Below, piece by piece: positions 33,756-36,080 of a stretch of 64,000 bases of DNA. This DNA comes from Acidimicrobiales bacterium (lineage in GTDB: Bacteria; Actinomycetota; Acidimicrobiia; Acidimicrobiales; CATQHL01), in the NCBI GenBank assembly GCA_965206165.1, contig OZ242194.1, positions 3,586,719 to 3,650,718 on the forward strand. The letters are read 5' to 3'. Every line of letters begins with the position of its first letter. Position 1 is the stretch's first letter. The notes beneath the pieces are model-generated. The model did not search any database and was not told the origin of the DNA. It saw only the letters and a program-made list of their open reading frames with translations. The position numbers were made by a program, and so were the translations under genes.

Positions 33756-33773
33756 CGCGGCACTCTACCGGGC
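33756..33773. repeat. Left copy of the 18-bp direct repeat CGCGGCACTCTACCGGGC (20/21 identical over 21 bp)
   Basis: Read directly. An identical 18-mer occurs at 36063-36080. The two copies bracket the hipBA region exactly at the intergenic borders. Confidence 0.8.
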
Positions 33774-33929
33774 ACCGGAGCACCGCTCGGCGTGTGTTGA
33801 AAACGGGTTGACGGTGACGGTCAAGCCGGTGGGCGCCTCGGGTGGATGGCTCAGCACACGCCCAAAGCCGCGACTTGCCGCCCTGTGGCCCTGCAGTTCT
33901 TCGGTACCCGGAGTTATCCGTGTGGGGTA

Positions 33930-34037
33930 CTTTGCGCCACAAGTCCTGGCTCGAGCGGCGCAGGATTGCTGGGCAAGCCACCTTGGGACGAGCCTCCCGG
34001 GTCACAGTGCCGCCGGGATGATTCGCCCCAGCCGGCA
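33930..34037 (-). ncRNA. Noncoding stretch with partial cobalamin-riboswitch-like motifs (very tentative)
   Basis: Minus strand reads ..GGGGCGAATCATCCCGGCGGCACTGTGACCCGGGAGG...CGAGCCAGGACTTGTGGC. This loosely resembles the GGTGnGAAtCCgg..GCCACTGTgAccGGGgAg and B12-box AGCCAGGAGACC segments. Several core positions deviate, and no obvious regulated gene follows. Confidence 0.15.
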
Positions 34038-34061
34038 CGAAGCGACATGGTTGTCGCTTCG
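34038..34061 (-). terminator. Perfect 10-bp stem / 4-nt loop hairpin abutting the hipA stop codon
   Basis: CGAAGCGACA-TGGT-TGTCGCTTCG at 34038-34061, immediately 3' of the hipA TAG (34062-34064). There is no U-tract. Confidence 0.45.
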
Positions 34062-35426
34062 CTACACCGAGTCGCCCCCTCTGTCCGGCCCGACGCGCTG
34101 ATCGGTGACCGTGGAGTCTCGTAACGCGATCAGCGTCGCCCCGGCGATGCTGGCGCAATGTGCGGCCCGCTGGGGCAACTCCTCGGCGAAGACGGCGACC
34201 TCGGGAACGTCCTGGTGATGGGGTGTGGCCTCGTTGATCGTGGCTTCGACCGCGGCGGGGAGGCGGATGGCCAGTTCCTCAGCACGGGCAGCGGTCTCCT
34301 GCGCGTTCAGGCCGAGAGCCGTCGCGAGCCTCTCTATCGCGGCGCCGGTGTCGCCGGCCTCCACGCTCCTGTCGGCGCCTGTGAACATCGCGAGCGTCAA
34401 CTGCTCCACGGGCACACCCGATCGGTAGGGCAACCACGTCGACGCGTCATACAACGGGGCCAACAGGCGCGCGTTGCCGCGCAGGAGCAGGCCATAGTTC
34501 TTGGCGTGCGCGTCGGGGTTCACAATCAACCACTGGAACAGCAGCATGTCGCGGAATCTTCTGAGATCGCTAGCAGCGGTTGCGCTGACGGGGTCGCGTA
34601 GCAACTCGGCGCAGCGGGCGGGGTCTGGACCTCCGAGACGTTGGTACTTCTGCTTGGGGTCCATTCCGGCCGCTTGGCAGAGGTCTTCTTGATGGATGCG
34701 CAACAGCGGCGACGCCGCGCCGGTTCGCGAGCGGTCGAAGCGACTGACGGCGATGGCCTCGACGTCGCCCCACTCGATGATCGACGTCCGCGCCGCCGGG
34801 ATGCCGAGCCGTTCCGCGGCTCGCAACGTGAGGTGCTCGATCAGGGCCTCGTGCTCGTATTCGAGCCGGGTCACTTTCACAATGTGGCTGGTCGGCTCTC
34901 GCCCGCGGGCTACCGCCCAATTGTCGCCGACGCGCCGCCATGCCACCTTCGGTTGCATGCCGCTGAGACTCCATCCGACATCGCCAACCCATTGTTGCGG
35001 ACGGTAGGCCGGATGAGCGCGAAGGCGGCGGAGCCAGTCGTGTGCCTCGTCGTCGGTCAGCACCGCGAGCGACCCCGCGCCACTCAATAGGTGCTCCGTG
35101 GTCGCAGGCGGGCAGAATTGCACAGCCCCCGCGCAGTCCGCGCCAACGCTTGTCCCCAGTAGATGCACGGCGTGCTCTTCGTTCACACCATGCGTTTCGC
35201 ACCAGTTGCGCAGCACCCTACTGCTGTCGGGCAAGAGTCCCCTGAGCCAGTCAGCCAGCCATGGGGCCGTAACCCGGGCGTCGGTCGTCGCCGGGAGACG
35301 AATCGACAGCGGCGTGGGGTGCTGCCGCCTGAGGTAATTGTCGAGATAGCGGAAACTGGGGCTGTCGTGAGCCGTCAGGTCGACTTCGCCGGCCAAGTGC
35401 CCCTCGATGAGAACGTCAAGTCGCAT
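34062..35426 (-). CDS. hipA: HipA-family serine/threonine kinase toxin
   Basis: 454-aa ORF with an N-terminal HipA coupling domain (MRLDVLIEGHLAGEV), SGMQPKVAW and the catalytic loop NPDAHAKNYGLL. It overlaps hipB by 11 nt. Confidence 0.88.
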   Translation of the reverse strand: MRLDVLIEGHLAGEVDLTAHDSPSFRYLDNYLRRQHPTPLSIRLPATTDARVTAPWLADWLRGLLPDSSRVLRNWCETHGVNEEHAVHLLGTSVGADCAGAVQFCPPATTEHLLSGAGSLAVLTDDEAHDWLRRLRAHPAYRPQQWVGDVGWSLSGMQPKVAWRRVGDNWAVARGREPTSHIVKVTRLEYEHEALIEHLTLRAAERLGIPAARTSIIEWGDVEAIAVSRFDRSRTGAASPLLRIHQEDLCQAAGMDPKQKYQRLGGPDPARCAELLRDPVSATAASDLRRFRDMLLFQWLIVNPDAHAKNYGLLLRGNARLLAPLYDASTWLPYRSGVPVEQLTLAMFTGADRSVEAGDTGAAIERLATALGLNAQETAARAEELAIRLPAAVEATINEATPHHQDVPEVAVFAEELPQRAAHCASIAGATLIALRDSTVTDQRVGPDRGGDSV

Positions 35427-35748
35427 CTCTGCTGTGACCCGAGAACACGTCGAGCATGCTGCGCAGATCCAGTGGTGCTGGTGCGGCTACGAGTTCGACC
35501 TCGTAACCGAGGACATGGACAAGGCGCAACACCAACCCGATCTCCGCGGTCGCTTTGCCGTTCTCTACCTGGGACAGCCACTTGCGCCCCACCCCGCCCG
35601 CCGCGGCCAGTTCACTCTGGGTCATTCCGCTCTGCTCGCGCAACTGTCGCAAAGCGAACCCGAGTTCACTCGGCCGTGTGATGTGTCGCACACGACGAGT
35701 GTCACCGCCCTGCGTCGGTGGTTCCATCCTCTGCGTCGGTGGTTCCAT
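35416..35748 (-). CDS. hipB: HipB-like XRE-family HTH antitoxin
   Basis: 110-aa ORF with LRQLREQSGMTQSELAAAGGVGRKWLSQVENGK (Cro/C1-type HTH). The N-terminus carries a duplicated heptapeptide (MEPPTQR MEPPTQG), so the start may be at 35748 or 35727. Confidence 0.85.
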   Translation of the reverse strand: MEPPTQRMEPPTQGGDTRRVRHITRPSELGFALRQLREQSGMTQSELAAAGGVGRKWLSQVENGKATAEIGLVLRLVHVLGYEVELVAAPAPLDLRSMLDVFSGHSRDAT

Positions 35749-35751
35749 CCG
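35710..35751. repeat. 21-bp tandem duplication spanning the hipB start codon
   Basis: CTGCGTCGGTGGTTCCATCCT (35710-35730) and CTGCGTCGGTGGTTCCATCCG (35731-35751), 20/21 identical. Each copy contains a CAT (ATG on the minus strand). Confidence 0.9.
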
Positions 35752-36062
35752 CCCAGCCTACCACTGTGTGGCCGTTCGGCCTCAATCATGTCGCGCGTCC
35801 GTACAGCCCCTCAGCCAGGTCGCGTCCGAGCGGCCACACCCCAGACTCACCTAGTCGTCCGGGACCCAGAATTGCAACGGTCAAATCCGCTGCCTGGTTA
35901 CTCACGTCTGCAACTCCCCAAAGAAGGGGCGATACACGCAGAGATTCGCCGTATGCCCGACGATCACATGATCCCTGAAAGCCACATCAAAATAGATGTT
36001 ATTCGACAGCTGTTGGCGCCAAGCGATCGTGCAACACTCGAGACGACCTGAGCCGACTCACC

Positions 36063-36080
36063 CGCGGCACTCTACCGGGC
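36063..36080. repeat. Right copy of the 18-bp direct repeat CGCGGCACTCTACCGGGC
   Basis: Identical to 33756-33773. It lies 27 bp downstream (in the icl gene's orientation) of the isocitrate lyase stop codon. Confidence 0.8.

Follow-up and report, generated by a model that had tools for sequence, protein, structure and literature searches.

A hipBA toxin-antitoxin module lies between the genes for isocitrate lyase (ICL) and an amidohydrolase in a stretch of 64,000 nucleotides (nt) from the genome of an Acidimicrobiales bacterium (contig OZ242194.1, positions 3,586,719 to 3,650,718; hereafter the window), where it is bracketed by two perfect copies of an 18-nt sequence. Five relatives with a single copy of the 18-mer at this position are true empty sites, and the hipBA site is a real insertion polymorphism. 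To judge from the sequences on either side of them, the two copies in the window are different alleles, the ICL-side copy being native and the amidohydrolase-side copy coming from the donor of the module; the foreign tract extends from position 36051 to somewhere between 33699 and ~33600, and includes the amidohydrolase-side repeat together with both of its flanks. The explanation that we favor, with slightly more trust than doubt, is that hipBA was acquired horizontally along with a donor copy of the promoter and upstream open reading frame (uORF) of the amidohydrolase gene, by a homologous crossover on one side and an illegitimate joint on the other.

The 18-nt repeat and its empty sites

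The 18-mer (CGCGGCACTCTACCGGGC) occurs twice on the forward strand of the window, at 33756–33773 and 36063–36080, with no mismatches, so that the perfect 18-bp repeat that an initial annotation of this DNA had placed around hipBA is confirmed at both coordinates. Ungapped extension of the repeat gives 23 matches in 26 positions (33751–33776 against 36058–36083), and the homologous duplicated target can be followed over ~52 nt (36103–36052 against 33796–33745), with identity only in the 18-nt core. The other matches to the 18-mer in the window (at 19277 and 42689) each have three mismatches. A chance origin of the repeat is unlikely; block shuffles of the window yield 0.025 exact 18-mer direct repeats within 5 kb, and none of 100 dinucleotide shuffles reached four or more 18-mer matches at three or fewer mismatches. 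We also considered whether the 18-mer is a dispersed repeat, which the initial annotation had named as the finding that would speak against an insertion, and rejected this. An exact scan of 185,579 species genomes (one genome per species, in a collection without the source genome) returned 63 single hits, nearly all of them in unrelated phyla, plus the orthologous site in genome L056; these single hits are at a level consistent with chance, and no assembly has a family of such repeats. The locus is also not an assembly artefact, because an independent metagenome contig from ENA (L001) carries the same structure and is 99.7–100% identical across the cassette.

Empty sites were recovered from contigs encoding close homologues of the amidohydrolase and from the same one-genome-per-species scan. 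In L122, L002, L056, L003 and L004 the ICL gene is separated from the amidohydrolase gene by ~100 bp in which the 18-mer occurs once, which is the single-copy arrangement that the initial annotation had expected in related genomes. The amidohydrolases of these relatives are close to that of the window, with protein identities of 97% over 79% of the length in L122 (P0011), 95% in L002 (P0001), and 87% in both L003 and L004. Homologues of the amidohydrolase put the organism within Acidimicrobiales, close to Candidatus Poriferisocius. In the more distant L005 (83%) the ICL–amidohydrolase spacer has a different sequence with no copy of the 18-mer, which suggests that the promoter core discussed below is specific to the clade. 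The spacers show two further features. That of L005 (9589–10000, 412 bp) is rich in short tandem motifs (CTTGAGGCGG and CCCACGGT), and in L056 a small palindromic element (GTCATTCCGGCGAAGGCCGGAATCCAG, ~4440–4480) that is not in the other spacers is located between the ICL stop codon and the 18-mer.

Ancestry of the two copies and the proposed insertion

All features of the locus described in this section are on the reverse strand. On the ICL side, the window tracks L122 at 95–100% through the native spacer between the ICL stop codon and the repeat (a′; 36081–36106, the same as L122 save at 36081), the ICL-side copy of the 18-mer (36063–36080) and 11 further nt of the native leader (GGTGAGTCGGC, 36052–36062) that are identical to L002. 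The ICL-side copy and its right flank match L056 at 27 of 27 positions, and are contiguous with L002 and L122. Between 36052 and 36051, 11 nt beyond the ICL-side repeat, homology to every empty site is lost.

The amidohydrolase-side copy (33756–33773) is also an exact match to the 18-mer, and it has non-native flanks on both sides. Upstream of it, the 23-nt segment a″ (33796–33774) aligns with the L056 and L003 spacers and, as they do, keeps CCGAGCGG, while L122, L002 and the ICL-side copy have a form that is 7 nt shorter; a′ is L002-like, without the CGAGCGG block that is found in L056, L003 and the amidohydrolase-side copy. Downstream of it, the 57-nt segment b″ (33755–33699) shows 44–46% substitutions when set against L122 and L002, and the body of the gene only 4.5%; L122, L002 and L056 are visibly much closer to each other in this segment than they are to the window. 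The best breakpoint is at ~33700 (p=2e-16), where identity to L122 and L002 rises from ~55% to >90%. Between nt 30 and 87 of the amidohydrolase gene there are seven sites at which the window differs from L122 and L002 where these two agree, and five of the seven match L003; past nt 87 the window tracks L122, and donor-type single-nucleotide polymorphisms are present only in nt 30–87. A breakpoint deep inside the amidohydrolase gene was also considered; the comparison resolves no further than 33699 to ~33600. Because a″ and b″ are both non-native, the amidohydrolase-side repeat lies within the foreign tract, and with the left junction 11 nt outside the repeat as well as foreign flanks, the repeat does not appear to be the footprint of an enzyme. 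The initial annotation was thus right to see an insertion between ICL and the amidohydrolase, although its bounds are not at the repeats, the tract being shifted by ~60–75 nt. Its proposal that the repeats are attL/attR-like or a target duplication is not supported, since the amidohydrolase-side copy is foreign on both sides.

These comparisons bear on two alternatives in which both copies of the repeat would be resident sequence. In the first, the target was duplicated in place upon insertion, with the copies becoming different afterwards through divergence or patches of gene conversion. The ~52-nt target is within the range of the 51–62-nt repeats at three other hipBA loci (L070, L072 and L073, described below), two of which (L072 and L073) have sharp repeat boundaries, and it is also within the 25–423 bp reported for restriction-modification systems without mobility genes (PMC2853133). 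However, the insertion is younger than the separation of the window lineage from L122 and L002, which are ~4–5% different from the window in this gene, and yet there is little or no similarity between the copies outside the 18-nt core. Moreover, a″ keeps an ancestral block that has been lost natively and which copying of a′ cannot yield, and the divergence is not confined to the duplicated segment but also affects the remainder of b″, all of which makes duplication in place very unlikely. In the second alternative, hipBA was present here ancestrally, and exact recombination of one repeat with the other removed it from the relatives. Precise deletions can arise through direct repeats and every empty site keeps exactly one copy, but at least three to four independent precise losses would be needed (in L122, L002, L056 and L003/L004), and a deletion through the 18-mer would leave a leader of the b″ type, whereas the empty sites have a different leader that is similar among them. 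The GC content at third codon positions (GC3) of hipBA is also atypical for the genome (0.80 for hipA and 0.69 for hipB, compared with 0.88–0.92 for the flanking genes), and the closest hipBA relatives, which are 72–86% identical, are at unrelated loci. We regard ancestral presence with repeated loss as extremely improbable.

The conservation of the 18-mer suggests a role for it in the expression of the amidohydrolase gene. In the orientation of the gene the 18-mer has the sequence GCCCGGTAGAGTGCCGCG, and it is invariant in both window copies and in L002, L003, L004 and L056, with flanks that diverge strongly. It includes the hexamer TAGAGT, which resembles a −10 box (36074–36069 in the ICL-side copy and 33767–33762 in the amidohydrolase-side copy). 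In the window, L002, L003, L004 and L122 there is a shared layout in which TAGAGT is followed after 7 nt by an ATG or GTG, a 19-codon open reading frame (ORF), and a TGA that overlaps the ATG of the amidohydrolase gene (as ATGA). The 19-codon uORF in the window (MNLEHDSVTSRRPVRLTRR, 33698–33754), which is in b″ and apparently a donor allele, has its TGA at 33697–33695. L056 alone breaks the layout, and its amidohydrolase gene also has an internal deletion. The length of the uORF and its coupling are kept among these genomes, and the peptide is conserved in no lineage. The orphaned native uORF, which starts at a GTG within the native leader remnant (36061–36059), is now a chimeric ORF of 20 codons that runs on into the cassette arm, toward hipBA. 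Actinobacterial promoters are characterized by a TANNNT −10 box, leaderless transcripts are frequent, and short leaderless uORFs are known. Because these features fit the arrangement of TAGAGT and the uORF, we infer that the 18-mer corresponds to the −10 box and discriminator of a leaderless transcript whose first element is a uORF with translational coupling to the amidohydrolase gene. If so, there is a gain for annotation in a probable −10 box and a leaderless 19-codon uORF controlling an amidohydrolase gene beside the glyoxylate-shunt genes. A search of Rfam gave no match at E≤1, analysis of the leader with RNAalifold gave no covariation support (covariation term +3.84), and the sole terminator-like site in a terminator scan is inside hipB.

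With these components, the favored explanation can be laid out as follows. The donor would be a related lineage in which hipBA was already located upstream of the orthologous amidohydrolase gene, and the imported tract, of ~2.35–2.45 kb, would have consisted in order of a 5′ arm, hipB, hipA, a 3′ arm, a″, the 18-mer, b″ and the 5′ end of the amidohydrolase gene. One homologous crossover would have occurred in the conserved 5′ end of the amidohydrolase gene, and the second joint, which may have been illegitimate or via very short homology, would have formed 11 nt downstream of the resident 18-mer. Some 46 nt of the resident leader would have given way to foreign DNA, and the resident promoter core would now stand upstream of the cassette as an orphan. 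The repeat would then be nothing other than the resident and donor copies of the promoter core, kept identical through purifying selection in all of the lineages, and the event may have been tolerated since the cassette provided the downstream amidohydrolase gene with a functional promoter and uORF. A recombination event of this form would be of the homology-facilitated illegitimate recombination (HFIR) type.

Flank copies at other loci and other routes of insertion

Imperfect direct repeats of 51–62 nt bracket three of the five close hipBA relatives at other loci. In L070 the repeat is 62 nt (82% identity) and is at the 3′ end of dtd, with a third partial copy; in L072 it is 58 nt (56/58) and in intergenic sequence; and in L073 it is 51 nt (48/51) and at the 3′ end of a conserved gene coding for 157 aa. 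All three of the differences between the L073 copies are at synonymous third positions, and the distal copy has variants common to L123 and L124, which points to two alleles rather than drift, with one being a donor allele. We considered L123 and L124 as empty sites for L073, but rejected them, as they share gene X of that locus but have other downstream content, and the region is a variable hot spot. There is no common core shared among the repeats at the four hipBA loci. Bracketing repeats are also not a general property of hipBA, and this idea was rejected; among distant HipA relatives (~25–37% identity) a bracketing repeat is present at one of 26 loci, with the rest at background. That locus (L096) encodes a HipA homologue of ~30% identity, and its 468-nt direct repeat is at 5002–5469 and 7344–7813.

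Two of the close loci have additional features. In L070 the copies of the 3′ end of dtd (D-tyrosyl-tRNA deacylase) are at 4982–5043, 5291–5329 and 7027–7088, one immediately behind a Wadjet JetD gene, one in the hipBA upstream arm, and one being the real gene end, which suggests successive insertions at one site. A weak match in the L070 arm (tblastn E=0.011 within a very small search space) might reflect a decayed dtd pseudogene into which the left repeat extends further. In L072 a truncated hipA (300 aa) and hipB are inside the repeat (8520–8577 and 11650–11707) and within an island that has AbiE, PIN, PemK, HNH and DDE transposase genes, with a 72-nt tandem array at 11727–11982.

A further flank copy is present in the window itself. 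The next gene beyond ICL codes for malate synthase G (38794–40980, forward strand), and its last ~84 nt (40897–40980, stop codon included) recur ~1.19 kb downstream at 42083–42166. The best 58-nt stretch of the two copies is 86% identical, and there is an in-frame 3-nt codon insertion or deletion, with the stop codon kept. The copies bracket a DUF4143-like ORF (41202–42140), the 3′ end of which continues into the second of them. Both copies are also found in L001 and L002, where they enclose different cargo that includes a PIN-domain gene, and in L003 there is a match only at the 3′ end of its own malate synthase gene. Like the hipBA site, the malate synthase site seems to be a hot spot of the flank-copy type. 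We note that malate synthase G of L001 is 93.3% identical to that of the window, with neighboring genes at 99.3–99.9%, which suggests a recent recombination tract. Beyond malate synthase G, L001 has a PIN-domain gene and a gene coding for 892 aa, both of which are not in the window.

The repeats at these loci also bear on the possibility of site-specific integration, in which an integrase-less cassette flanked by att sites, similar to a cis-mobilizable element (CIME), would have entered by recombination between a ~52-nt attP (a″–18-mer–GGTGAGTCGGC) and an attB with crossover in the 18-nt core. The tyrosine or serine recombinase would be encoded elsewhere, and the repeats would be hybrid attL and attR sites. 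Single-copy empty sites are in accord with this, as is the resemblance of a″ and GGTGAGTCGGC together to a complete spacer of the L056 type, as would be seen for an attP that mimics its target; identity segments of 50–60 nt are typical of actinomycete integrative elements, and the three dtd 3′-end copies in L070 suggest repeated use of one site. However, b″ should then be native and is instead strongly diverged, and because it is foreign, any crossover within the 18-mer in this lineage, whether at att sites or of the Campbell type described below, is disfavored. The repeats at four loci without a common core would call for four specificities, and the ends of the cassettes vary, with the repeat abutting or overlapping the hipA stop codon at L070 and L073. 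In agreement with the initial annotation, an ORF and family search of the window found no integrase or transposase ORF, and hence no recombinase gene, in or beside the cassette, and only hipB and hipA have family hits between the flanks. We therefore consider site-specific integration to be distinctly unlikely. A transposon or insertion sequence was also considered and rejected, as the cassette lacks terminal inverted repeats (between its ends, the highest inverted score of 7.5 is level with the shuffle mean of 7.4), there is no transposase, and the copies differ in ancestry.

Integration of a circle by a single crossover leaves direct repeats of the segment that is shared, each a hybrid of donor and recipient. 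A Campbell-type event of this kind, with a circle carrying hipBA, a″, the 18-mer, b″ and the 5′ end of the amidohydrolase gene, and with a later deletion trimming the resident duplicate, would account for the differing alleles here, at L073 and at the malate synthase site, and for repeat lengths that vary from 51 to 468 nt. It does need two events, as the full resident leader and a 5′ fragment of the gene are absent and only 11 nt of the leader are left. Furthermore, no circular form or replicon is known, and the best plasmid and phage HipA proteins are ≤36% identical, with none confirmed as a relative in IMG/VR; a phage or plasmid vector was rejected as a candidate for the same reasons. A Campbell-type origin is thus unlikely.

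Several observations weigh against the favored explanation of a donor tract joined homologously at one end. The L122 sequence comes from long reads at 1x coverage and contains sequencing errors, and the right junction, at the 5′ end of the amidohydrolase gene, is resolved only to the interval from 33699 to ~33600. The first 99 nt of the gene differ by 8.1% compared with ~4.5% for the rest, an excess that we judge too small for significance. A HipA more than 85% identical was not found outside this species and the donor is unsampled, and we therefore infer rather than observe that the left junction is illegitimate; the left joint could alternatively be a crossover within a repeat that was already in the donor. 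The 51–62-nt repeats at the three other hipBA loci may reflect a dedicated mechanism that generates duplications and not independent joints. Lastly, the lack of conservation of the uORF peptide makes fast evolution of b″ conceivable, although a″ is unexplained by it, and a scan for sigma-70 consensus promoters found nothing, which speaks against the promoter role of the 18-mer.

Elsewhere in the window there is a 46–66-nt copy of the middle of the amidohydrolase gene (32826–32891) at 32152–32217, 264 nt downstream of its stop codon. This fragment is 91% identical to the window gene and 93% identical to the L002 gene, and it sits at the edge of a strain-specific region that encodes a 2137-aa repeat protein; in the relatives, the equivalent position is occupied by PemK toxin-antitoxin genes and an aconitase gene, or by other genes. 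Long arrays are present at 22590–26290 and 25633–32046, with 111-nt repeats (22.6–25.1 kb) and 27/54-nt repeats. The 27/54-nt repeats are inside the 2137-aa protein, which has Ca-binding GG-repeat motifs and a GC3 of 0.77, and the 111-nt array is just upstream of it. The stretch from 22590 to 32046 resembles a surface or adhesin region particular to this strain.

The hipBA module and related insertions

The gene content reported in the initial annotation, with hipA and hipB between isocitrate lyase and an amidohydrolase, is borne out by the ORFs and by Pfam matches. The ICL gene (36107–38548) is a native flank that codes for the long 813-aa form (Pfam ICL, E=4e-122), and the amidohydrolase (32481–33698) belongs to PF04909 (Amidohydrolase_2). 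The hipA product (34062–35426), a predicted Ser/Thr kinase toxin, matches HipA_C (E=2.4e-43, profile positions 1–211 of 213) and Couple_hipA (E=1.3e-15, 1–98 of 99), and scores 60.1 bits with TIGR03071, above its cut-off. It aligns with E. coli HipA (3tpd) over residues 10–415 (E=2e-39), with corresponding motifs PDAHAKN/TDGHAKN, LYD/FYD, HIVK/HIIK and SLSGMQPK/SVAGAQEK. The residues that we take to be catalytic (D in PDAHAKN, D in LYD, K in HIVK and S in SLSG, for D309, D332, K181 and the S150 loop of E. coli) are kept and, given this alignment, the module looks intact. The hipB gene (35416–35748; HTH_31/HTH_3) overlaps hipA by 11 nt, and its product, the predicted antitoxin, scores 66.6 bits with the NCBIfam couple_hipB model TIGR03070, which is under the curated cut-off of 71.65. 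All four genes are on the reverse strand.

At the 5′ end of hipB there is a perfect 21-nt tandem duplication (35710–35750) that encodes MEPPTQR-MEPPTQG. Tandem repeats of 15–21 nt are present at or upstream of the hipB 5′ end in every close locus (e.g. L069 2930–2967, L071 9046–9165 and L072 9076–9132), which might serve as operators for HipB or mark a hot spot for slippage. The true start of hipB probably lies further downstream. The region upstream of hipB (35749–35921), presumably the hipBA promoter and operator, is conserved with hipBA locus L069, and by blastn the window from 35921 to 34056 is 86% identical to that locus. The shared module is limited to this span, and so the outer arms are not part of a defined element. 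The 5′ arm (35922–36051), which is next to the ICL-side repeat, is noncoding, unlike the empty sites and the other hipBA loci, and has 52% GC compared with 69% for the whole window, a departure that, with the lower GC3 of hipBA, answers the initial annotation's question of how the composition of the cassette compares with that of its flanks. The 3′ arm (33797–34061) is also noncoding and has no homology to the empty sites or other hipBA loci, save for its first 5 nt, which match L069. It opens directly past the hipA stop codon with a perfect 10-bp stem and 4-nt loop (34038–34061; CGAAGCGACA tggt TGTCGCTTCG), which is likely to be a factor-independent terminator without a T-tract.

The module resembles E. 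coli HipBA (3tpd, 2wiu, 3dnt and 4yg7) in having a HipA with N-terminal coupling and C-terminal kinase domains, and a HipB of the Xre type with a helix-turn-helix motif, encoded upstream by a gene that overlaps hipA. It differs in that its HipA is only distantly related to that of E. coli, and in that its HipB scores just under the couple_hipB cut-off.

Among published cases, the insertion itself comes closest to what has been termed, in work on restriction-modification systems, insertion with long target duplication (Nobusato et al. 2000, Gene 259:99; Furuta, Abe & Kobayashi 2010, PMC2853133). In those cases there are no mobility genes, and the repeats are of 25–423 bp, often imperfect (e.g. 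44/46), often overlap the 3′ end of a gene, and align to a single copy in the genome with the empty site; the mechanism is left open in the published papers, and double-strand breakage was suggested (PMC2853133). Furuta et al. (2010) defined such insertions as inserts of <20 kb without mobility genes, with direct repeats of >30 bp of which one copy is in the empty site. The hipBA insertion in the window is 2.3 kb and has no mobility genes, it has empty sites, and its target is ~52 nt with 18 nt identical (23/26 with extension); repeats longer than 30 bp are present at L070 (62), L072 (58), L073 (51) and the window malate synthase site (~84 nt). The likeness is in a small addiction-type module with no linked integrase or transposase and with repeats that correspond to a single copy in a genome with an empty site, and L070, L073 and the window malate synthase site match the published pattern. 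The differences are that the published cargo is restriction-modification and here it is hipBA, that only 18 nt are identical, that the copies here are shown to be different alleles with one of them foreign, and that the foreign tract runs past the repeat. In the literature searched, we found no report of toxin-antitoxin modules inserted with long target duplication.

CIMEs and integrative mobilizable elements also have cargo that is flanked by direct repeats and without recombination genes, and they have single-copy empty sites. The window differs from these in its foreign outer flank, in having a junction outside the repeat, in the unrelated repeats at the other loci, and in that no cognate integrase was found.

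HFIR is known from transformation of Acinetobacter, Pseudomonas stutzeri and Streptococcus pneumoniae. The window is similar in that one end appears to be homologous (the amidohydrolase 5′ end) and the other to be joined illegitimately nearby, with a short resident stretch exchanged for a longer foreign tract, and a junction of the homologous-crossover type is seen in the breakpoint at ~33700 and the donor-type polymorphisms in gene nt 30–87. The classical form usually deletes resident DNA without leaving an orphan copy, unlike the window.

This locus is a clean natural case of a toxin-antitoxin module entering a chromosome without a mobility gene, in which filled and empty sites and the ancestry of both repeat copies are resolved, and it illustrates that cassettes can be bracketed by a perfect direct repeat that is neither an att site nor a target-site duplication. 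Copies of flanking sequence that are foreign alleles recur, and this is a testable mechanistic hint for long-target-duplication insertions of addiction-type modules. One broad and rather doubtful suggestion is that in sponge-associated and marine Acidimicrobiia, toxin-antitoxin and defence islets spread by a single process that leaves an orphan foreign-allele flank copy of 50–90 nt, with examples in the hipBA family (four of six loci) and in the cargo between malate synthase and a UvrD-like helicase. If this were correct it would supply the missing mechanism of long target duplication, either as one-sided anchoring with an illegitimate joint or as a Campbell-type event at short homology, and would extend long target duplication to toxin-antitoxin modules. 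Alternatively, the narrow range of 51–62 nt could reveal a dedicated enzyme that generates duplications.

The hipBA insertion is clearly a fairly ordinary horizontal gene insertion, of a known kind of event. A toxin-antitoxin module that is present or absent in a short spacer between conserved metabolic genes was described within a species group in a 2009 study cited in PMC3184786. That case concerns another toxin-antitoxin family and another phylum, and in the passage of PMC3184786 that cites it there is no promoter-core duplication or donor-allele analysis, which are the features that set the window locus apart from it.

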